From the IMG/VR virus record IMGVR_UViG_3300037502_002629: a DNA stretch of 64,000 bases, one strand, 5' to 3'. The notes beneath the pieces are model-generated. The model did not search any database. It had not been told where the DNA came from and saw only the letters and a program-made list of their open reading frames with translations. Positions 52,854 to 62,329 of the stretch are shown in pieces (positions within the stretch are counted from its first letter, which is position 1; every line of letters starts with the position of its first letter). Made by a program: the position numbers and the translations under genes. Origin of the DNA: an uncultured virus (IMG/VR IMGVR_UViG_3300037502_002629) (Duplodnaviria > Heunggongvirae > Uroviricota > Caudoviricetes).

Positions 52854-53777
52854 TCAGACTATATCATCATCATGATTATTAATCATGAGCAGGGCACTCG
52901 TGTTAGCATTACTGTCCTCAACATTACTTGGTAGGACTCGGCTATTAGTCGTTGAACCTTCAAGAGCATTACTGCTCAAGCTTGGCTGCTGATTGTCCTC
53001 TGAGCCATCAGTAGGAGTTTCCAGCAATTCACCCTGTTTTACAATCGCTATCCCCTTCTTAAATCTGTATTTACCTTTAACTTTCTTACCTATACCTCTA
53101 CAAACACTTGAAATACATGCACACAAACTATCAAAATTATCTCCTTCTTCATAAATGCTTCTAGCTGCAGTAGCTATATTTTTAAATTCTGAAATATTAC
53201 CTTCAGAATCAATCATAGTTACTCCAACCCATTTCCACTTAGATCTTTGTAAATCATAAGTGACTTCAGCATTTTTGTTGTAGCTCCACAAATAACCACC
53301 CGCAGATTTAAGTTTACCATTACAAACTTGTATAATGGAACTTGCTGCTATGTGAGTCTGTCGTTGAGCTTCTTTTGTAGAAGGATAATTACTTACTAGT
53401 TTACCATCAAGTCCAAACTGGTATACAGTTTTACTGTTAGGTATAGAATTATTTTGTGTTACAGGATCCAGTTTATTATTCAATACTGGCCCTAACAACT
53501 CAATCCAATTTTTTTCTAGTTCAAGTAATTTTTCTCTTGATATGTCTTTTTCAAGATGCAGTACAGAATAATGACACTTTTCTGAACCGTGTTTGTTGAA
53601 TGTGTGCTGCATCCTAGAATTTTCATGACTATTCTTTATCAATTTGTTTTTATGTTCCCTAAGTCTGTTTTGAATATTTACAGAACTTCCTACATAATTT
53701 AATTCATTGATTTTGAGATAGTAGATTCCAGGATACTTACTTATTACATCAAGTGATGTTTGAAATAGAGGTGTCAT
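52854..53777 (-). CDS. Intron-encoded GIY-YIG homing endonuclease with NUMOD1-like repeats
   Basis: GIYYL...YVGSS...RLREH; VYQFGLDGKLV..YPS..EA...I...C.GK.KSAGGYLW. Confidence 0.9.
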   Translation of the reverse strand: MTPLFQTSLDVISKYPGIYYLKINELNYVGSSVNIQNRLREHKNKLIKNSHENSRMQHTFNKHGSEKCHYSVLHLEKDISREKLLELEKNWIELLGPVLNNKLDPVTQNNSIPNSKTVYQFGLDGKLVSNYPSTKEAQRQTHIAASSIIQVCNGKLKSAGGYLWSYNKNAEVTYDLQRSKWKWVGVTMIDSEGNISEFKNIATAARSIYEEGDNFDSLCACISSVCRGIGKKVKGKYRFKKGIAIVKQGELLETPTDGSEDNQQPSLSSNALEGSTTNSRVLPSNVEDSNANTSALLMINNHDDDIV

Positions 53778-53857: not shown

Positions 53858-54625
53858 ACGATTCAACTCGTCAAGAAGTACGATACCATCTTGTTGCACA
53901 TGGCCTACAAATGGAGCATAATCGAACTCTGAATGACCGTCTTTATTCAACCTGTGCACACCTAACAATGCAGATTGAGCATCTTGCACAGTACCCATAT
54001 CCTGTATACTCAAGGGTTTTTCCATGGCACGCGCAATGTGTGATACCAGCTCTGTCTTGCCTGAGCCTGTAGGTCCTACCAACAACGTATTTTCACCACG
54101 CATGATGTTACGTATTAACAAATACCATACATCTGCATCAATGTGAAAACCTGTGCTTTGCTCATCTGGACAAGGGTACAATCGCATAATACGATCTCTT
54201 AGTGTACCTGTTTCATCTTCGGCATAAGCTTTACATTTAGCTTCCACATCTAACAAGTAACCCATCTCGACCCACTTAGCTGCATATTCGAGGGCTTTTT
54301 CGCGCTTAATCTCATTAGACATAAGCATCCACTCAAACGTGTAGTTAACATCTTCGTGTGTGCAGGATATTTCACCTACAGTATTCCCATATACAGTTTC
54401 TTCGTAAATGACAGGACGCGGTGCCCCTATAATCTTAGAAACTACTTCACCCCAAAGGATTTCACTAACAATAAACACTGTCCCTATCGGGAATTTTGTC
54501 AATATTTTAGAGTCACCTGTAAACGTGGTGCTGGATAAATCAATTGCCTTTGGTTTATTAGGCTGGTTGTCAACAAATTCAATGTTAAATTGTGTACCTC
54601 TGAGGGCGGTTTTAATTAAATACAT
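53858..54625 (-). CDS. MoxR/CobS-like AAA+ ATPase, exon 1 (spliced product 420 aa)
   Basis: GPTGSGKT and LLDELNR. The TAA that follows is the first three nucleotides of the intron. Confidence 0.88.
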
Positions 54626-54627
54626 GT

Positions 54628-54873
54628 TTAATTTTTAAATTTTGATTGTAGATATTCAATAAGATACTTTGCGTAACTAACCAGTAACACATGTTTGTCA
54701 AATACAAATTGTTCTTTGCCTTCAGCTAACGCCTTTGCATATTCTTTTTTTAATCTTGCAAAGTCTTCTCTGTCAAAAGATCTGTAATCAGTCATAACTT
54801 TACGATTGGACGTTTGACCATAATAAATAATACACAGAACCATCAGGCCTGCTAACACCAGTACTATAAGCAT
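54628..54873 (-). CDS. Hypothetical protein
   Basis: ORF track. N-terminal hydrophobic segment; start uncertain. Confidence 0.55.
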   Translation of the reverse strand: MLIVLVLAGLMVLCIIYYGQTSNRKVMTDYRSFDREDFARLKKEYAKALAEGKEQFVFDKHVLLVSYAKYLIEYLQSKFKN

Positions 54874-55060
54874 TCATAATAATATTACTGAATTCATCTT
54901 CTGAAAACATATAATTACTTTTAGGTCCAAAAACTAAATTGCAGATATATGTTTCCGCTTGGTTTATTATCTCCTCACTAAACTGTTCCTCTAAAATAGG
55001 AAATGCCTCAATAATCTGAGGCATTTCTTTAATGATTGCTAATACATTTAATACTCTCAT
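54800..55060 (-). CDS. Hypothetical protein
   Basis: ORF track. Confidence 0.55.
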   Translation of the reverse strand: MRVLNVLAIIKEMPQIIEAFPILEEQFSEEIINQAETYICNLVFGPKSNYMFSEDEFSNIIMNAYSTGVSRPDGSVYYLLWSNVQS

Positions 55061-55275
55061 GCAAGATCTAGTTCTTCAAACAGTAAACCATATCCAATAA
55101 TACCAGCCACCCAATTCTGAATAGTTTGTTTGGCTTTACGCTTAGACTTATAGCCCTCGCTTGTGAGAATAATTTGTCCATTTACAGTACTGATAATATG
55201 CCAGTACCATTGTTTGTCAATGCCTCTCCACAACTGAAGAGCATACATTGGTTTGTTTTTACGTGTTTTTTTCAT
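55057..55275 (-). CDS. DUF1508/YegP-like protein
   Basis: QWYWHIISTVNGQIILTSEGYKSKRKA. Confidence 0.7.
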   Translation of the reverse strand: MKKTRKNKPMYALQLWRGIDKQWYWHIISTVNGQIILTSEGYKSKRKAKQTIQNWVAGIIGYGLLFEELDLA

Positions 55276-55346
55276 ATTATGTCCATGTTAGATTTAACTA
55301 TTTCAATCAACTTTTTTAATCATTTTGTCAAGTTATAGGACGGCAG

Positions 55347-55580
55347 TTAACTTCTCTCGTTCCAGTAGTCATCAAAATCGCACATTGACCGGGCATAGAC
55401 ATGACCTCTGGCATCATGTGCATGGATTGCAGCGTCCCAAGTTTGACCGTGTTGGTGTCGTTCAAGCTCCAGAAGTTCCTCAGCCTTGTCAATCGCTTGG
55501 GCGAATGAGAGTATCTTACTTGGATTATCCTTGAGCATCTGCTCACCCCATTCAATCAGTTGTTGGAGTGCGGTCTTCAT
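55347..55580 (-). CDS. Small protein of the 'KTAV/LxW...EKEQI...YYNE' family
   Basis: MKTALQQLIEW...LELERHQHGQTW...DDYWNE. Confidence 0.65.
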   Translation of the reverse strand: MKTALQQLIEWGEQMLKDNPSKILSFAQAIDKAEELLELERHQHGQTWDAAIHAHDARGHVYARSMCDFDDYWNERS

Positions 55581-55807
55581 CCTAACAGTTGCCTCCATTT
55601 TTGCTGGATGTCATACGGATTCTTGACATACTCGTTGAGTTCATTCACAGCCTCTTCTACACTTTCAAATGGGATTTGCTTGCAGCCTACTTTAATGACA
55701 CATCCTCGTGCCATAAATTCAATCTCAATCTTATACTCCTGAAGGAAGTATTGATTTGAAGGTCTTTGAATTGAAGGTTCGGTTGGTGTTAATGTGTTGT
55801 GGTTCAT
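55577..55807 (-). CDS. Hypothetical protein
   Basis: ORF track. ATGA overlaps on both sides. Confidence 0.65.
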   Translation of the reverse strand: MNHNTLTPTEPSIQRPSNQYFLQEYKIEIEFMARGCVIKVGCKQIPFESVEEAVNELNEYVKNPYDIQQKWRQLLG

Positions 55808-56052
55808 TGTTTAGGTTGTTTATAGTTTTCATTATAGTAATTCTCAGCATATACTTGGTCTGTCCAAGGTTCTGATAGGTAGTCTCGACCATTCCTAAAA
55901 CTTTCTTTTGCTACCTTGACAATCATTTCTGCTTCCTTTTGTTTAGCAATGGCATATGTCATACAAGCTGTTTCATATAAATCTCCATCGTGTTCAAAAT
56001 GACTTTTAATTTTATCAAAGTACCAATCTACTGCGGTTTGTTTATTTTCCAT
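55804..56052 (-). CDS. Small protein of the 'QTAVDW...YYNE' family
   Basis: MENKQTAVDW...AKQKEAEMI...AENYYNENY. Confidence 0.7.
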   Translation of the reverse strand: MENKQTAVDWYFDKIKSHFEHDGDLYETACMTYAIAKQKEAEMIVKVAKESFRNGRDYLSEPWTDQVYAENYYNENYKQPKQ

Positions 56053-56248
56053 ATGTTTCATTGTAGTATTGTTCTGCATTATTTAAAGTAATATCTTCTG
56101 GGAATGAAGAACCTTCATCAAATCCTCTGTCAAGCGCTTTCATTATCTGCTCCTTCTCTATTGCGAGTGCTTGGTCAAAGTCTGATGCTTGAAGTTCTTT
56201 TGTCTGGCTTAGATTCCAAAGCCATTCGACTGCTGTCTGTTGTTTCAT
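56042..56248 (-). CDS. Small protein of the 'QTAVEW...YYNE' family
   Basis: MKQQTAVEWL...ALAIEKEQIMKA...AEQYYNETY. Confidence 0.7.
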   Translation of the reverse strand: MKQQTAVEWLWNLSQTKELQASDFDQALAIEKEQIMKALDRGFDEGSSFPEDITLNNAEQYYNETYGK

Positions 56249-56249
56249 A

Positions 56250-56639
56250 TTAATACTCTCTTTTAGGTATAAATTTTTCCATTCCAATGATGTACTCTTC
56301 AGCTATCCAAGAAGTGGATGTGGTGTAATACTTTTCTCCCATCTTAAATGCTCTATGCGTTTCTTCTACATCATTGTAGTTTGTCTTTACCATGTACTGA
56401 TTGTCGGGGTTGAACCTTGCATGAAATACTTGAGTGTCTTCTTTCTTAGCCAAGCTTTCTTCATACTGCCAATCCTTTTGTAGCCATTCAAAGAGGTGTA
56501 TCCTTTCACCTTCTGTCATTTGACTCCAATATTTGTCTGTTAAGTTTTGCCAAAACATTGTCCGTGCAATTGGTCTTGGCGGTATACAAGCCTCTGCTAA
56601 GAAGGCTAATTCAAAGAAATCTATTGTGAATGTAGTCAT
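56250..56639 (-). CDS. Hypothetical protein
   Basis: The likely start is MTTFTIDFFEL at 56639. The longer ORF-track call overlaps the cassette gene. Confidence 0.65.
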   Translation of the reverse strand: MTTFTIDFFELAFLAEACIPPRPIARTMFWQNLTDKYWSQMTEGERIHLFEWLQKDWQYEESLAKKEDTQVFHARFNPDNQYMVKTNYNDVEETHRAFKMGEKYYTTSTSWIAEEYIIGMEKFIPKREY

Positions 56640-56727
56640 ACTATGGTTGTGTTTTGTTTCATCTATCCCATCCCCTCCTGCTGGATTGGCGAAATAATAT
56701 ATCGGTAATAATAAGTTAGCGGTAATA

Positions 56728-57102
56728 TTACTTACCGTACACAAACCAAATCGGCTTAACTGAACAAAACATTCCCCAATCTTGACTGCCAACACCACTT
56801 CTTTCAGTTGACAACTCAAATGCAACTTTTGTGCTTCCATCTGTATCGGGTTCATTTGCTGTTGGTTTTTTATTGGCTTGATACCATCCCCAAGCGAAAT
56901 CAATAGTTTGTTGTAAATTGTATTCGTAAGGGAATTTTTCGCACTTGTCCGAATACCTTGAAAGAAATAATTCGTTTTCAATTATTTTATATCCGTTGCA
57001 TCTAAATTCCTTATTGAAAGGAACTTCATCCAATGCAATAAGTTTTAAGCCTAATTCAAAGGCTTCTTTTGTGGTGTTTCTAACTAATACTTCTACATTC
57101 AT
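56728..57102 (-). CDS. Hypothetical protein (cassette 1)
   Basis: ORF track. Contains EPDTDGS and is bounded by GTTAGCGGTAGTA and TATTACCGCTAAC. Confidence 0.75.
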   Translation of the reverse strand: MNVEVLVRNTTKEAFELGLKLIALDEVPFNKEFRCNGYKIIENELFLSRYSDKCEKFPYEYNLQQTIDFAWGWYQANKKPTANEPDTDGSTKVAFELSTERSGVGSQDWGMFCSVKPIWFVYGK

Positions 57103-57151
57103 TTTATTATCGTTTTTAATTGAAAATCACTCGTAAACTAAACCGTACTAC

Positions 57152-57282
57152 CGCTAACAAGGGTTTGTAGCAATAGGGGCAGAAGTGCTTTAATTAAGCT
57201 GTGTACTTCTAATCAGCTTTAGTAGGTAATTGAACAGTAGTGCATCTAATCCCCTACTGCTACAAGCCCCGAAACGTTAGCT
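57152..57282. repeat. attC-like site A
   Basis: CGCTAAC...GTTAGCT ends. Inner arms GGGTTTGTAGCAATAGGGG / CCCCTACTGCTACAAGCCC are 17/19 complementary. Confidence 0.82.
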
Positions 57283-57903
57283 GCAACCGTAAGAAAGCAC
57301 CTCGATAGCCTTGTTCGCTTGTTCGATAGTTAATCCTTCCATTGAATCACAGCAGATAAAATATTTTGATTGTTCGTAAAGCATATCGGAATCATCATCT
57401 AAAATCACATAGGTAAAATCAGTTCCCAGCTTATTTGAACGCATCATTTTAAAACTACCATCTTCATTTAAAATTTGGTATCGCTCATTTTGTTCAGGGT
57501 AAGCATACCAAGGGTAAATTACGTGTGTATCTAACCATTGTTTAATTTCAACACCCCTCGGAATTGATAAATGAACACCTTTTTGTAAATATTGATAAGC
57601 TCTAATTGTTATACCTATAATTTCATCACAAAATTTAAAGCCGTGTTCTTTCATGTGTTCAATAGTATCTTCAATAGTATGTTTTCTCCAACTGCTACTA
57701 AGAACTATTTTTGCACCTGTTTTTTCTATTATCATTCCAAGTAATTCTTGTTTTTCGGGTGTTAAAGCCCACATTCCATGCTCAACTGTTTTTGGTGTAG
57801 CAATTACCCCATCAATATCGAGAAAAATAAAACGGCAGCAGCTAACCGCACCTATACGCAAAATGGGGTTGTCGTTCTCGTTGGATAAATTTTCAGTATT
57901 CAT
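57277..57903 (-). CDS. HAD-family protein (Swiss-army-knife RNA-repair-like HAD), cassette 2
   Basis: FLDIDGV, IVLSSSWR, RGVEIKQWL and YVILDDDSDM. The stop TAA lies in the GCTAAC box of site A. Confidence 0.8.
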   Translation of the reverse strand: MNTENLSNENDNPILRIGAVSCCRFIFLDIDGVIATPKTVEHGMWALTPEKQELLGMIIEKTGAKIVLSSSWRKHTIEDTIEHMKEHGFKFCDEIIGITIRAYQYLQKGVHLSIPRGVEIKQWLDTHVIYPWYAYPEQNERYQILNEDGSFKMMRSNKLGTDFTYVILDDDSDMLYEQSKYFICCDSMEGLTIEQANKAIEVLSYGCS

Positions 57904-57972
57904 AAGTTTCGTTTTTGTTGTTAATTTTGTGGGTACAATCCCCATTCAGCGCATAGCTGCAACTCGTTAGTG
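57840..57972. repeat. attC-like site B
   Basis: AGCTAAC...GTTAGTG ends. Arms GCACCTATACGCAAAATGGGGTTGT / ACAATCCCCATTCAGCGCATAGCTGC. Confidence 0.8.
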
Positions 57973-57979
57973 GCAAGTG

Positions 57980-58297
57980 CTACTGACCGTTCCATAACAA
58001 ACGATGTTCGTCTAACTTGTCATAATATTGTTTCATATTTTCATCGCCTACAATTTGTTTTAATTCCTGCTTCCAAAAGTCTTTTTCTAAATTGTGAAGT
58101 TCATTAGCTCTTATAAGCCTTGCAGTTTCGTTAGGGTTCTCAAGTTTATTATAGTTCAGTGTTGCAAGCCTTAATCTGAATCCACTTATAATTGCTCTTA
58201 CTTTAGGAATTAAAACATCTTTCCTAAAATATGGCTCATCGTTTATAGCTTGTACTAATATTTCTGATAATTCTTTTGTACTCGTTTCTTTTGACAT
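57980..58297 (-). CDS. Hypothetical protein (cassette 3)
   Basis: ORF track. Lies between sites B and C. Confidence 0.75.
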   Translation of the reverse strand: MSKETSTKELSEILVQAINDEPYFRKDVLIPKVRAIISGFRLRLATLNYNKLENPNETARLIRANELHNLEKDFWKQELKQIVGDENMKQYYDKLDEHRLLWNGQ

Positions 58298-58321
58298 TTT
58301 CGTTTAATTTACCGCACCAGC

Positions 58322-58424
58322 CGCTAACAGCGGTTTGGTGCTATTATTTTGCCTATAAATTTTATCTAAGGCTTGAAGTATCTGCAAGGCAAAATAACAG
58401 ACACCAAGCCACCAAACGTTATGT
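58322..58424. repeat. attC-like site C
   Basis: CGCTAAC...GTTATGT ends. Arms GCGGTTTGGTGCTATTATTTTGCCT / AGGCAAAATAACAGACACCAAGCCAC have one extrahelical base. Confidence 0.82.
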
Positions 58425-58730
58425 GCAAGGCTGCGGGACGTTTTCAATATAAGTTTCCAGTTTTATAAACCTATACCCTTTTTGAAAGCTAAACATTGTA
58501 TGTCCGCAAGTTTTATGATGCAATCCAAATAACATAGTATCAAATGTTTTATTTGTGAGTGAAGTTATAAATGTTTCAACTGAAAAAGGAAATGTTATTT
58601 TCTTTTTTGCTATACCTAAAACACTTCCGCAACATCCGCAATAAAACTTGCTGCCTTTTAGAATATCGTTACCATCTGATTTCTCAACAATGATTGTATC
58701 TCTCATTTTATCAATTAGAACTTTTTCCAT
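58419..58730 (-). CDS. Cys-rich hypothetical protein (cassette 4)
   Basis: YCGCCG...HKTCGH. The stop TAA lies in the ACATAAC box of site C. Confidence 0.7.
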   Translation of the reverse strand: MEKVLIDKMRDTIIVEKSDGNDILKGSKFYCGCCGSVLGIAKKKITFPFSVETFITSLTNKTFDTMLFGLHHKTCGHTMFSFQKGYRFIKLETYIENVPQPCT

Positions 58731-58759
58731 TGCGTTTACAAATTAAATTTAGTGCTGAA

Positions 58760-58785
58760 CACATCACCCCACCGTGAAGTAGACT
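58760..58785. repeat. 26-bp exact direct repeat, copy 1 (copy 2 at 61077-61102)
   Basis: CACATCACCCCACCGTGAAGTAGACT at both positions. Confidence 0.9.
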
Positions 58786-59052
58786 CCATCTCGGCTTGTT
58801 TGCTTGGTTACGTTGCGATTCATAAACTTGAAGGTCTCGACAATCCACTGCATTATGGTCCGGTGCATCGTCTTCTGATGCTCTTGGAATGCTGTCCTGA
58901 TCTGATCGACAATATCAGTGAGCTTGTATTCGACTCCGATGATGATGAATTCCTTGATCCACAGCATGACTTCTTCCGGGACTGTGTTGATGAGCTTCTT
59001 GTAGCGGAGGGTGTTTGTTGTTTCATATTGGGAAGCGGAGAGTTATAGGTAA

Positions 59053-59226
59053 TTAAAAAATTGACTTCAATCGTTTCCACCACGATTTCCATCTAAACCT
59101 AATTATTGTATCACATATCATACATTTATCCATTGTGTAATGCTCCGTATTTGTGTAAACGATATGACGGAAATCATTGCAGTCGTGCTTTACATAAGTT
59201 ACTGCTTTATCTTGTTCTTTATTCAT
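59053..59226 (-). CDS. Small Cys/His protein (cassette 5)
   Basis: MNKEQDKAV...CMICD...WWKRLKSIF. Bounded by GTTATAGGTATG and ATTACCTATAAC. Confidence 0.65.
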   Translation of the reverse strand: MNKEQDKAVTYVKHDCNDFRHIVYTNTEHYTMDKCMICDTIIRFRWKSWWKRLKSIF

Positions 59227-59357
59227 AATCAATTTTTTAACATACCTATAACAAAGTGTATAAGTAATGTGGCTAAATAAGTTTATCTGTAAGTTGAAAG
59301 TATGTGCAAATATTGCGGTTAAGTGTCTATCCATTTTATCGGAATAGAAACATTCAC

Positions 59358-59558
59358 CTACTTTACCGTATTTGTGGTTGCATTTTGAAGAAGTTCAAGC
59401 CTTGATCGAATTAAATCTCGCATTTGCTTTGCTCCTTGAATCCTGTCGTTTCGTATTTTACGATACCTTCCATCAGTGTGGGAATAATGTTCAGTTGTGA
59501 ATATCTCTTTTATTTCCTCATCAGTAGGAAACAAAAGTGCTAATTTTAATATATCCAT
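59358..59558 (-). CDS. Hypothetical protein
   Basis: ORF track. PTDEEI...QGAKQMRD. Confidence 0.6.
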   Translation of the reverse strand: MDILKLALLFPTDEEIKEIFTTEHYSHTDGRYRKIRNDRIQGAKQMRDLIRSRLELLQNATTNTVK

Positions 59559-59645
59559 ATTCCTGTTTTATATAGATAATCGTATGTGAATGTCCATGTA
59601 CAATGTGTCATATTGTTATTTGAGTTGCATGGTTAGTGGTTGGTG

Positions 59646-60026
59646 TTATTTATGGCTATCTGAATCGCAGTTATCACCTCCGCATATTCTGCATAATCCT
59701 TTTTCGGATGAAGATAATTCAGTCAATCTTTCTGCTTTTAATGCACGGTCACGCCAATCATTAATTTGATCTAATGCACTTGCCGCATCTTCAAACCTAA
59801 ACCTTTTTTCTGTTGCAAGTTGTTGTTTCAGCCTTTTCATCTCCTCCTCCATCTCCAACAACGCCTTCCGCATCTCAGGGGCAAGGGGGAAGAGTTCGCA
59901 ATCATCTCCATTACTAACATCAGCAATGTGTATTTGTCCACTGTATATTGATCCGTATTGAGTATTATCCCACTCCCCCTCAGTCGGATTGAGTGCTTTG
60001 AGTTTTTCGATTAGGTCGGTGTTCAT
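59646..60026 (-). CDS. Hypothetical protein
   Basis: The likely start is MNTDLIEK at 60026, overlapping the upstream TGA. Confidence 0.65.
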   Translation of the reverse strand: MNTDLIEKLKALNPTEGEWDNTQYGSIYSGQIHIADVSNGDDCELFPLAPEMRKALLEMEEEMKRLKQQLATEKRFRFEDAASALDQINDWRDRALKAERLTELSSSEKGLCRICGGDNCDSDSHK

Positions 60027-60448
60027 GATATGATTTTCCCGTGTTTTATAACAAAATATAGTTTGTTTGGCTCTGCTCCCCATTGAGGGTTTCCTGTTCT
60101 GATTTCAATTCCTTTATGCTCTATCCTTAAAATCCGTTACGTATCCTTTGACTTTGGATAGCCTAAAGTCATTACATTGTAATCGAATTGAGCAAATGGA
60201 CTTCCAGCAAATTGCCTCCATTCAGCAAAATCGTATTTGCCTTTTACAAAATCTGACATTGCAGAAAAATATCCTCCATGTGGTGTATGGACTTTCTTTA
60301 GCAGTCTTTTAGCCCAATATTCATTTATCTCTCTGTAATCTTCGGTTTTTACGCCCGCTTTGGTCATTTCAAACCATTGTCTTTTAAGAGATAGTCGCAA
60401 GTTTGTAATGGTAGGTCTGTTCATTGTTTTTTCGATTAGGTATGTCAT
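60023..60448 (-). pseudogene. ASCH/PUA-like gene interrupted by an in-frame TAA at 60137-60139
   Basis: LSLKRQWFEMTKAGVKTEDYRE...LGYPKSKDT*RILRIEHKGIEIRTGNPQWGAEPNKLYFVIKHGKIIS. The frame continues 37 codons to a TGA that overlaps the next ATG. Confidence 0.75.
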
Positions 60449-60624
60449 GATTTTTGAAAGTCTTTACAAGTGTTTTTATGAGATACTGATTGTTTATGCT
60501 TCGTGCAATAGTGTTTAATCCAAACCTTCTGCCCCCAATCACCTGCGGTCTTGCTGGTTGCTATCTTGCAGAATTTGCACTTAGTGCAATTCTCTGTTTT
60601 CATGTCGTGGATTTGGTCGGTCAT
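60445..60624 (-). CDS. Small Cys-rich protein
   Basis: CTKCKFC...YCTKH...TCKDF; start uncertain. Confidence 0.55.
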   Translation of the reverse strand: MTDQIHDMKTENCTKCKFCKIATSKTAGDWGQKVWIKHYCTKHKQSVSHKNTCKDFQKS

Positions 60625-60628
60625 GGGG

Positions 60629-61003
60629 TTAGGGGTTAGATATACTTGATCCGCCACAAGGAAATATTGTTTTCTTGCCTGCCCAGAAATCTATAATCTT
60701 TAAAAATATTTCTGTCCTGCTGTTTCCATAGAAGACAAACTCTCGCATTCTTGCTTCGATAGCGTGTTTATGTTTTACCTGAAACCAATTACCATTAACA
60801 TCCTCAAAACTCTCAACGTGTTCTATTGGCTCCTCTTTTGCATAGTGCCAACGTATTTTGTTTTTACCTGACAGCATTCTTGCTATTGCCTCAAGATGAT
60901 ATTCTGTTTTTTCTTTGATTGCTTCGTCAATCATTAATCTTGCTTCGTACTCTTTTTCATGCTCAGGCATAAAAGAGTTAATCATTCCTGTTAGACTTCT
61001 CAT
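60629..61003 (-). CDS. Hypothetical protein
   Basis: ORF track. Confidence 0.6.
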   Translation of the reverse strand: MRSLTGMINSFMPEHEKEYEARLMIDEAIKEKTEYHLEAIARMLSGKNKIRWHYAKEEPIEHVESFEDVNGNWFQVKHKHAIEARMREFVFYGNSRTEIFLKIIDFWAGKKTIFPCGGSSISNP

Positions 61004-61115
61004 ATTTCCTTTTTTCTCTCACACCGTCATCGCCCGGTGTTGTGGCGGTTGTATTATCGGGAAGCGGGGCGTTACGCACATCACCCCACCGTGAAGTAGA
61101 CTGCTGTTTGTTGTG

Positions 61116-61203
61116 TAGTCAGTGTGGGATTTGAACCCACATCTCCCATCTGCGATGGGGCGTTACCCTAGACAGTATTCATTCCTGTTTACGCCAACCG
61201 ACT
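61116..61203 (-). ncRNA. tRNA-like cloverleaf with abnormal loops
   Basis: Acceptor AGTCGGT/ACTGACT. D-stem GCGT/ACGC with a 27-nt loop. Anticodon stem CCCAT/ATGGG with a 5-nt loop CGCAG. T-arm GTGGG-TTCAAAT-CCCAC. Confidence 0.7.
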
Positions 61204-61340
61204 GCCTTTATTCTCCTGAAAATCTTTCTGTGTGTGTATTTCTGATTTGCTTTGCTTTTTTAGCAATATCAGGTCTTGTAGGATCTGACAGCTGCGGGTT
61301 ACACGCCCACATTGTACTTATTATGCAAATGATAACAGTT

Positions 61341-61769
61341 TTAATTACCTTTTCCATATTTCCAATGATAATGTACAACAACAGCCGATAAAACACCTGC
61401 TATAGCAGTAGCAACCCACCAGTTTCTACCTTTGCGAATAGATGCATATTGTTTATTGCAACTCACTAATAAATTAGTGTTTTCAATAGATAAGCTATCA
61501 TTATAGTTTTGCAATCGTAACAGTTCTCCCCGCAGACTTGCAATATTTCTATCTTTTGCATCTAGAGATTCAGTTTGATTCTTAAGATCGGCGCGTAAAG
61601 TAATCACTTCAGTTCTTACAATATCGCACCTTTCTAAATCCTCAAGCATAAACTGCATAAGATACTTAGGTGTGTAAATTAAGGAGTCTTTACTCTTGCT
61701 TATATCGTTTTGTGAGTACGTCAATGAAGTATTCAGAACTACTATGAGAAACAGGAATAACTTTTTCAT
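61341..61769 (-). CDS. Exported coiled-coil protein with C-terminal TM
   Basis: Signal peptide, coiled coil and WWVATAIAGVLSAVVV. Confidence 0.7.
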   Translation of the reverse strand: MKKLFLFLIVVLNTSLTYSQNDISKSKDSLIYTPKYLMQFMLEDLERCDIVRTEVITLRADLKNQTESLDAKDRNIASLRGELLRLQNYNDSLSIENTNLLVSCNKQYASIRKGRNWWVATAIAGVLSAVVVHYHWKYGKGN

Positions 61770-62034
61770 TTTTCTTTATGATTTTAGTTATGATTATTGG
61801 TTTGTTTTTGATTGAGGCATTTTCAGATTGTAATAGTTTAACAGTATCGTTTAACTGATCTATTAAATTTTCCATTAGCGCAATTTCTTCATTCTGCTCG
61901 TCATAATCAAGTTTTAACTTACTTAACTCATAATTCATGTTTTTTAACACATTTGCCGAGTCACGCTGCTGAGTGTAAGAATAAATCAATCCTGCTAATA
62001 ATACCGCAATTATGCTGTACAATACTTTATTCAT
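61690..62034 (-). CDS. N-terminal TM coiled-coil protein
   Basis: MNKVLYSIIAVLLAGLIYSY followed by heptads; overlaps the next gene. Confidence 0.7.
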   Translation of the reverse strand: MNKVLYSIIAVLLAGLIYSYTQQRDSANVLKNMNYELSKLKLDYDEQNEEIALMENLIDQLNDTVKLLQSENASIKNKPIIITKIIKKNEKVIPVSHSSSEYFIDVLTKRYKQE

Positions 62035-62329
62035 GTAGTTGATGTTTTTTATAACTTATAATTTGTTCGATAAATGAGCGTAATAGAAAGCGATCAGTAA
62101 ATTCAAAATCAGGTGTCTCAAAAAGCTGTACTTTCCATTCGTCATTTGTTACTTTTTCTGAATCCATGCTAATCAGACAAAAATCGCTATTCATGTCTGA
62201 TAATGCATATTCATAGTAATAATAACCAGTGGCATCTCCAGATTCCTCTGGAGACACCACGATTTTTGTAAAGCCTAAACGCTCTAAGTCCATTTCATTA
62301 ATTCTCATAATATCCTGAACCCTCCGCAT
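62027..62329 (-). CDS. Hypothetical protein
   Basis: ORF track. Confidence 0.65.
   Translation of the reverse strand: MRRVQDIMRINEMDLERLGFTKIVVSPEESGDATGYYYYEYALSDMNSDFCLISMDSEKVTNDEWKVQLFETPDFEFTDRFLLRSFIEQIISYKKHQLHE

Follow-up and report, generated by a model that had tools for sequence, protein, structure and literature searches.

What enables a phage to collect and exchange single small genes at one place in its genome? We asked this of positions 56715-59310 in a 64,000-nt window, the whole stretch of DNA analysed here, from the uncultured virus record IMGVR_UViG_3300037502_002629 of IMG/VR, whose whole genome measures roughly 125 kb. A preliminary description, made from the letters of the window, had noted three hairpins in this region, each bounded by TAAC and GTTA boxes and separating single co-oriented open reading frames (ORFs), and had read them as an integron-like cassette array with attC-like sites. 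Comparison with related loci makes it rather probable that the stretch is a partly decayed array of mobile cassettes with one gene each, belonging to an integron-like system of Bacteroidota and their phages that likely uses an Xer-like recombinase. It is an integron-like array, not a canonical integron. Positions are window coordinates throughout, and all array genes lie on the minus strand, hereafter the gene strand, on which the array features are read.

Hairpins and matching cassette ends in the window

The three hairpins proved to be real. Read from TAAC to GTTA, their cores run from 57279 to 57155 (hairpin A, 125 nt; TAAC 57276-57279, GTTA 57155-57158), from 57969 to 57843 (hairpin B, 127 nt) and from 58421 to 58325 (hairpin C, 97 nt; TAAC 58418-58421, GTTA 58325-58328), with single, co-oriented genes between them. 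Also as described, two stop codons fall inside TAAC boxes, namely that of ORF B (57277-57279) in the box of hairpin A and that of ORF D (58419-58421) in the box of hairpin C. Folding of both strands as single-stranded DNA, a check suggested by the preliminary description, yielded z-scores of -3.26, -2.69 and -3.74 on the gene strand for A, B and C, respectively, with 0/200, 3/200 and 0/200 shuffles reaching the same stability, versus -2.24, -0.63 and -3.73 on the plus strand. In the fold, TAACG and TGTTA pair as an R stem of 5 bp that includes a fixed G-T pair; four extra bases (TTTK) then bulge from the 5' arm, the one that bears the crossover box, before a long stem, interrupted by single mismatches, leads to a loop of 30-70 nt. 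An Rfam search of the hairpins returned no match at E<=10.

End matching was scored by counting complementary positions between the 12 nt after a cassette's GTTA and the 12 nt before its own TAAC. Cassettes C, B, A and E reached 8, 9, 8 and 9 of 12 positions, respectively, while the two flanks of one hairpin were complementary at 4, 5 and 4 positions and the remaining 13 combinations at no more than 6. The earlier observation that the ends of one cassette match each other better than the flanks of one hairpin was thereby reproduced (8-9/12 versus 4-5/12). Because its two ends are complementary, a circular cassette would close its own long hairpin.

A hairpin family in phages and bacteria

When hairpins A and C were turned into one strict pattern, it matched 71 loci in IMG/VR and 25 in genomes or metagenome-assembled genomes (MAGs), the latter mostly of Bacteroidota and including two Pedobacter isolates (loci are numbered with the prefix L). 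Hairpin C is 99% identical over 97 nt to a hairpin in L037 and 96-98% identical to nine others, and hairpin A is 92% identical over 125 nt to one in L063/L064; given such near-identical copies, the likeness goes beyond chance. With a covariance model, R1, built from 70 sites, 73 loci yielded 259 matches at E<=0.01. Weak echoes on the opposite strand account for about two dozen, and all others sit in co-oriented arrays of up to 13 sites. R1 scored hairpin A, of the 125-nt type, with 60.7 bits and hairpin C, of the 97-nt type, with 89.8 bits; site lengths cluster at 87-97 and 125-128 nt within a full range of 87-128 nt.

The stems covary strongly. When 150 sites were aligned by fitting to R1, a model that favours the structure, 97.6% of 2395 cells were paired, compared to 34-46% in slid controls. 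Compensatory changes were seen in 11/11 pairs of the inner helix, and double-change cells numbered 366 versus 88.8 after shuffling, a value reached in 0/500 shuffles. Again, cassette ends matched: in 83 cassettes located between adjacent hairpins (median unit 645 nt), own ends were complementary at 7.5/12 positions (median 9), compared to 3.9/12 for the flanks of one hairpin and 4.0 for random pairs (p = 7e-17). The leader sequence after GTTA co-varies with the hairpin subtype, and the sequence before TAAC does not. Finally, the gene strand is the more stable one in 102/138 sites (mean -1.16 kcal/mol), and the G-T pair beside TAAC is kept in 147/150 sites; together, the better fold and the kept pair suggest that the gene strand is the one that is folded and exchanged, with the cut at TAA|C, to which the bottom-strand cut of attC sites can be likened.

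Phage and bacterial arrays differ in the position of the gene. In viral loci (L005-L075), the longest inter-hairpin frame shares the strand of the hairpins in 58/71 intervals, is opposite in one and ambiguous in 12; in genome loci (L079-L103), it lies on the opposite strand in 7/12 intervals, on the same strand in three and ambiguously in two. Phage arrays thus appear to be ordered site-then-gene and bacterial arrays gene-then-site, so that the two pools seem to be mirror images, on a small bacterial sample. Pedobacter frigiditerrae carries 20 sites over several contigs, adjoining ordinary chromosomal genes, and a Flavobacteriales MAG holds two loci, one with an intact recombinase adjoining the hairpins. 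Genes typical of integron cargo are found in the bacterial arrays, among them one for a predicted aminoglycoside nucleotidyltransferase; the system may, given this cargo, also move resistance-type genes in environmental Bacteroidota. Cassettes at L079:1254-6992, from the Flavobacteriales MAG, encode a chromate transporter, a PF04439 streptomycin adenylyltransferase and a two-domain ABC ATPase, and they adjoin a broken Xer-like recombinase.

Cassettes are exchanged from TAAC to TAAC

Comparing loci delimits the mobile unit and reveals cassettes that were lost, gained or translocated. Segments common to otherwise unrelated contigs (L010/L030/L067, L016/L068, L032/L047, L012/L055) run from one TAAC to the next. 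Five other viral contigs, 6 to 246 kb in size (L111, L112, L113, L115, L116), contain cassette B with a DNA identity of 81-92%, each time within unrelated flanks. The match extends from TAAC to TAAC in L111 (57977 to 57275, 92%) and in L112 and L113 (57969 to 57272), where hairpin B and ORF B are conserved together; in L115 and L116 it begins at 57870 and 57846, respectively, inside the hairpin or at the GTTA box, and ends at the closing TAAC. Since shared units span TAAC to TAAC, the mobile unit is hairpin plus leader plus gene, with the crossover in the TAAC box 5' of the hairpin (G|TTA on the other strand), so that a hairpin travels with its downstream gene. The preliminary description had derived a G/TT crossover from a circle. 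The end signature behind that proposal stands; the crossover box needs to be shifted from the GTTA after the hairpin to the TAAC before it. At the end of an array, T and unrelated DNA come after the final TAAC; L026 and L073 share this backbone, with different last cassettes.

Cassette differences were also seen between cultured phages. Searching GenBank with hairpin C returned 37 records, all of them Flavobacterium phages of the hosts LMO6 and LMO9. Phages mumin6-1 and mumin6-3 differ by a 506-bp indel of exactly one cassette with TAACGTT at both ends, and the terminal cassette is missing from snork6-2. One cassette of 444 bp, 100% identical in lillamy9-1 and lillamy9-7, two isolates of one cultured phage species (L107 5637-6080 and L108 2037-2480), occupies an internal slot, TAAC|GCTTTGC..., in the former and the terminal slot, TAAC|TACAATATT..., in the latter. 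The terminal junction of lillamy9-7 begins TAAC|TACAAT, and every lillamy9 junction lies at TAAC. These phages were described by Nilsson et al. 2020 (PMC7077304), in whose accessible text the words 'hairpin' and 'cassette' do not occur; DNA methyltransferases, which the authors there link to plating efficiency, are part of the cultured-phage cargo (PMC7077304).

Complementarily, contigs of four sequencing runs (X1, X2, X3 and X5) were aligned with the window; these are assembled contigs and not reads, so rare variants are invisible in this comparison. Cassette E is matched at ~93-94% by X2 record 16 and X3 record 22, from two other studies, and both matches stop exactly at 59042. X1 record 7 and X5 record 30 share hairpin A and stop at 57279, and a high-depth 111-nt contig of X5 spans exactly 58311-58421. 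X3 record 20 (871 nt) follows the window from 58791 to 58306 with 3 differences in 486 nt, keeping ORF D and hairpin C, and continues with ~259 other letters, then 56722-56699 and then 56246-56169. This record represents a close relative whose cassettes C, B and A have been replaced and whose flanks are both retained. Weak joints (56733 to 57133 and 58432 to 58728 in X5, and those at 56074-56222) were set aside because of short sides (20-29 nt) and 90% likeness, and may stem from repeats of other organisms.

In run X1, from which the window probably stems, the assembly graph breaks at hairpin A, where a 126,433-nt contig begins at 57194. Two other X1 contigs overlap the hairpin A region only in part (57125-57169 and 57194-57279), and the X1 sample thus contains further arrays with a hairpin A site.

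An Xer-like recombinase and an attI-like site at the array end

Which enzyme might act on these sites? The window is indeed without an integrase, as had been stated: neither a homologue of the recombinase described below nor any tyrosine recombinase was found in its 64 kb. Elsewhere, PF00589 was matched in 7/30 array-bearing viral records (6 above cut-off) and in 4 of the 17 array-bearing phage records that are at least 90% complete, the other 13 being without it, and none of five complete cultured phage genomes has a PF00589 gene, both lillamy9 isolates included in lacking a tyrosine recombinase. In L051, the last cassette is followed by the gene of a 277-aa recombinase (L051:10507-11340), and homologues with 31-60% identity occur in 10 further loci (two broken, one cut by the locus end). 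In all 11 loci the gene, encoding 265-290 aa, lies at the array end that is downstream when read along the hairpins; it is co-directional with the hairpins in eight and points the opposite way in L079, L095 and L101.

The L051 recombinase resembles Xer rather than IntI enzymes. It scored 198 bits on NF040815 and 175 on XerD, under every cut-off, versus 164.5 bits on TIGR02249 (cut-off 265) and 86.4 bits on NF011946 (cut-off 435), the two IntI models. Its nearest solved structures are archaeal XerA (4a8e, 4e-35; 5hxy) and XerD. Alignment with VchIntIA (2a3v) gave two stretches separated by 29 residues where the IntI has 72, so the IntI-specific insert is absent; this insert is essential for integron function, according to Smyshlyaev et al. 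2021 (PMC8138268). No IntI was found in any locus examined. The preliminary description had attributed gene gain and shuffling to IntI-type recombination. Gain, loss and movement at the AAC/GTT boxes were confirmed, but the enzyme found nearby is Xer-like, and the label 'IntI-type' is not retained because this enzyme falls under the IntI model cut-offs and lacks the insert.

Adjacent to the recombinase, the array end has a recurring form. In 6/6 loci examined, all with a co-directional gene, the last TAAC of the array is followed by a similar sequence, TAAC|(T/A)A(T/A)(T/A)ATAT..; the candidate site of L051 reads TAAC|TATTATATGTAAAC. This attI-like sequence precedes the recombinase start codon by ~40-70 nt in five loci, with further DNA in between in L050. 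The array end of the window (56680-56718; terminal TAAC 56715-56718, then T and AT-rich, non-hairpin DNA) takes the position of the attI-like site in recombinase-bearing arrays, the next gene here not being a recombinase, and has of the attI-like features the terminal TAAC|T junction only. As the recombinase is absent from the window and from 13/17 near-complete array-bearing phage records, it probably acts in trans, which appears to be the usual situation among array-bearing phages. The earlier suggestion that recombination is supplied from elsewhere is therefore plausible.

A model for cassette exchange

Taken together, these results suggest the following model. A cassette would begin with its folded site, from TAAC through stem, loop and second stem arm to GTTA, and continue with a short leader and a single gene ending ...TAA(C); site-specific recombination would excise and insert it within the TAAC box, whose complement reads G|TTA. 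New or re-inserted cassettes would enter at the downstream end of the array (TAAC|T...), the equivalent of attI. Most likely, the reaction is carried out by the small Xer-like tyrosine recombinase seen at that array end in other phages and in bacteria, and in this phage the enzyme might come in trans from the host, from a co-infecting phage or from the other half of the genome. The single gene strand presumably folds for this reaction, and the array may still be active in this phage; duplex recombination, or an additional RNA role beside single-strand folding, is possible.

A broader interpretation, to which we assign an even chance, is that Bacteroidota and their phages harbour a second, IntI-independent integron with an Xer-like enzyme and its own attI-like site, whose phage cassette pool is a mirror image of the bacterial one and whose recombinase is mostly borrowed in trans. 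Being hairpin-first, with its own leader and its gene on the folding strand, a phage cassette would be readable within phage operons; unrelated phages, 30 to 310 kb in size, would trade such cassettes and, for the most part, borrow the recombinase during infection.

The integron is generally seen as an invention of bacteria that is bound to a single clade of integrases. In the present case, integron logic (folded sites, circular cassettes, one entry point) would operate with a simpler Xer-like enzyme and would be spread over many Bacteroidota phages, including cultured lytic Flavobacterium phages with a cassette hop between isolates. If true, this would account for how hypervariable accessory regions of Bacteroidota phages are assembled and exchanged, and it bears on the origin of IntI from Xer recombinases. 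The cultured Flavobacterium phages offer a tractable phage-host pair for studying recombination in trans.

Several observations weigh against the model. The link between recombinase and sites is drawn from their adjacency in 11 loci, and a recombinase may lie outside the window, which covers 64 kb of the ~125-kb genome. The strand asymmetry is modest and, since G-U pairs are allowed, would fit an RNA-level role equally well. The array of this phage is worn, with one unit lacking a hairpin, one hairpin reduced to a remnant, and hairpin B unmatched by R1. Not all breakpoints conform, either. L026 and L050 share a cassette with different hairpins, the homology beginning in the 3' arm next to GTTA; X1 record 4 diverges from the window at 57125, within a leader; and in a blind tally of eight usable collinear pairs, too few on their own, homology started at TAAC in four, in the 3' arm in one and further downstream in three.

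Alternative explanations and known systems

We regard it as unlikely, though the best of the alternatives, that the same cassettes and recombinase operate through a duplex Xer/dif-like site, with TAACGTT as the central region, as in pdif, and each hairpin representing two inverted sites. The array-side enzyme is Xer-like and the crossover AACGTT is palindromic, and pdif modules are likewise bounded by inverted sites: on Acinetobacter plasmids, discrete gene modules flanked by inverted Xer-type sites have moved between replicons. However, stem covariation extends over at least 16 bp, far past a binding arm, and a duplex site would need neither the kept G-T pair (147/150) nor the better fold of the gene strand. 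The left 'arm', that is the end of the previous cassette, is not conserved; of a 28-bp pdif site, with two 11-bp arms around a 6-bp centre, an AACGTT centre is present here. pdif modules combine 28-bp duplex sites with host XerCD and have no long covarying hairpin, attI-like entry or ordered array. The present system also appears to differ from Xer/dif in lacking an 11-6-11 site, and it has arrayed sites flanking cargo and a dedicated enzyme encoded beside the array. An Xer enzyme acting on a folded strand has a precedent in the integration of CTX-phi by XerCD at dif, and the recombinase found here is closest to archaeal XerA and XerD.

Less likely still is a canonical integron cassette array, that is a cluster of attC sites lacking an integrase (CALIN), in which a host IntI recombines ordinary attC sites at G|TT. 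Much does look alike. Both are arrays of single-gene cassettes with imperfect palindromes, AAC...GTT cores and near-identical sites within a lineage; the cassette ends are complementary, which is what excision of a circle at G|TT predicts; cassettes enter at one end of the array, beside a tyrosine recombinase gene; an attI-like site lies at that end in the six recombinase loci examined, and in lillamy9-7 a cassette re-inserted at the terminal TAAC; and many arrays have no recombinase. The window cores, at 97, 125 and 127 nt, are within the 57-141 bp of attC sites and have the R'' ...AAC and R' GTT... boxes, the 87-128 nt range of the family being attC-like as well, and with at least two sites and no integrase the window (three hairpins plus two further boxes in 2.6 kb) would qualify as a CALIN if its sites count as attC.

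The differences lie in fold, order and enzyme. An attC site has an unpaired central spacer and two or three extrahelical bases opposite the cleaved R box, in the L box; here, the extra bases form a 4-nt bulge by the R stem on the cleaved arm, next to fixed G-T pairs. Of the 'attC-like' label in the preliminary description, the AAC...GTT cores consequently remain, and the classical extrahelical-base layout does not. An integron cassette is a gene followed by its own attC and recombined at G|TT of the distal box, whereas the phage hairpin precedes the gene (58/71 intervals) and each cassette has its own leader; bacterial loci mostly show the classical order. The array-side recombinase is Xer-like, scores 164.5 bits where TIGR02249 requires 265, lacks the IntI insert and is co-directional with the cassette genes in 8/11 loci; neither the window nor any locus examined offers an IntI-clade integrase.

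IntegronFinder/HattCI attC calls do exist in Polaribacter phage P12002L, with one site recombined by IntI1 (Qi et al. 2023, PMC9892861); R1 finds one weak match in this phage, in the methyltransferase region (19.2 bits). Altogether, CALINs were reported from 17 phages in that study by Qi et al. (PMC9892861), in which IntI1 recombined 5/6 tested sites; the accessible text contains neither 'Xer' nor 'Flavobacter' nor 'Bacteroid', and the supplement names no Flavobacterium phage. In print, a literature search with subscription journals mostly outside its reach found only 'CALINs in phages' (Qi et al. 2023) and no description of an Xer-type cassette system in phages or Bacteroidota.

The least probable explanation, and one we give very little credit, is that the hairpins are regulatory elements or terminators and that genes are shuffled passively by homologous recombination between repeats: the hairpins are intergenic on the transcribed strand, favour G-U-compatible pairs and have leaders conserved with the subtype, and the L026/L050 junction lies inside the conserved 3' arm, but junctions with non-repeat DNA (the terminal insertion in lillamy9-7, array ends) share TAAC only, a dedicated recombinase and a conserved site stand at the array end, and bacterial arrays carry the hairpins on the non-coding strand of the genes in 7/12 intervals. 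Promoter-stem-loop (PeSL) cassettes of T4-type phages, small accessory genes flanked by repeated stem-loops in hyperplastic regions, would be the known counterpart. PeSL exchange uses homologous recombination, without a recombinase or a fixed 4-nt junction, whereas here junctions are at TAAC even against unrelated DNA. Nor do the hairpins have the short GC-rich stem, small loop and T-tract or promoter of intrinsic terminators and PeSLs: none of the three was called terminator-like, terminator-like sites were not enriched (5 versus 3.7 expected), and promoter- and terminator-like sites alike stayed at shuffle level.

Parts of the array and its surroundings

Read from 59310 to 56715, the array consists of a remnant, cassette E, a GC-rich piece, ORF D and then cassettes C, B and A. 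The remnant, upstream of cassette E, is the loop-like part of a hairpin only (59266-59309; R1 positions 47-89, 9.7 bits, E 3), with no paired arms seen. Cassette E (59042-59252) has its GTTA at 59249-59252, ORF E at 59053-59226 (57 aa) and its closing TAAC at 59042-59045, and contains the inverted repeat I7 (19 nt, 84%). It is followed by a GC-rich piece of 276 bp (58763-59038), with no strand assigned and reading frames broken on both strands, at the position expected for the hairpin of ORF D. ORF D with its leader (58419-58762) thus forms a unit without a hairpin; the ORF itself (58419-58730) encodes a Cys-rich protein of 103 aa, and its family-type leader (58731-58762) resembles the leader after the 89/90-nt hairpins of L032/L047. 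The GC-rich piece was ruled out as a wrecked recombinase, having no recombinase similarity and no Pfam or PHROG function. In run X2, a ~90%-similar contig links 59038 back to 58763 with GGA in between, a joint compatible with tandem copies, or with a circle, in a relative.

ORF C (57980-58297, 105 aa, no family match) is the cargo of the cassette headed by hairpin C. ORF B (57277-57903) encodes 208 aa with a HAD_SAK_2 phosphatase-like domain from residue 26 (PF18143, 1.2e-21); its ATG (57903) sits in the loop of hairpin B, which contains its first 25 codons. Hairpin A goes with ORF A (56728-57102, 124 aa), the last cassette gene, which aligns along its entire length, at 40% identity, with a cassette gene located after a hairpin in L047 and L032.

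Between 36180 and 62895, the window has 20 ORFs that reach 150 aa, every one on the minus strand, and it encodes phage replication genes and giant ORFs. The 'crAss-like' assignment was not confirmed: the best named phage hits of the DNA polymerase are ~60-kb Vibrio phages at 35% identity. A megablast search of 54000-62000 against GenBank phages gave no match. The nearest relatives, L001-L003 (62-68% amino-acid identity on a flanking gene), have no hairpins and no R1 matches, and their flanking genes are ~0.7 kb apart. Lacking the whole 55-62 kb block, they are uninformative on cassette-level differences. This 7-kb block of small genes (55060-62305), absent from L001-L003, has the array in its middle. 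It further includes a tRNA gene at 61116-61203 on the minus strand (Rfam RF00005, 34.6 bits), and an ORF with homing/HNH endonuclease PHROG matches (52854-53777, minus strand) lies just downstream of the accessory region.

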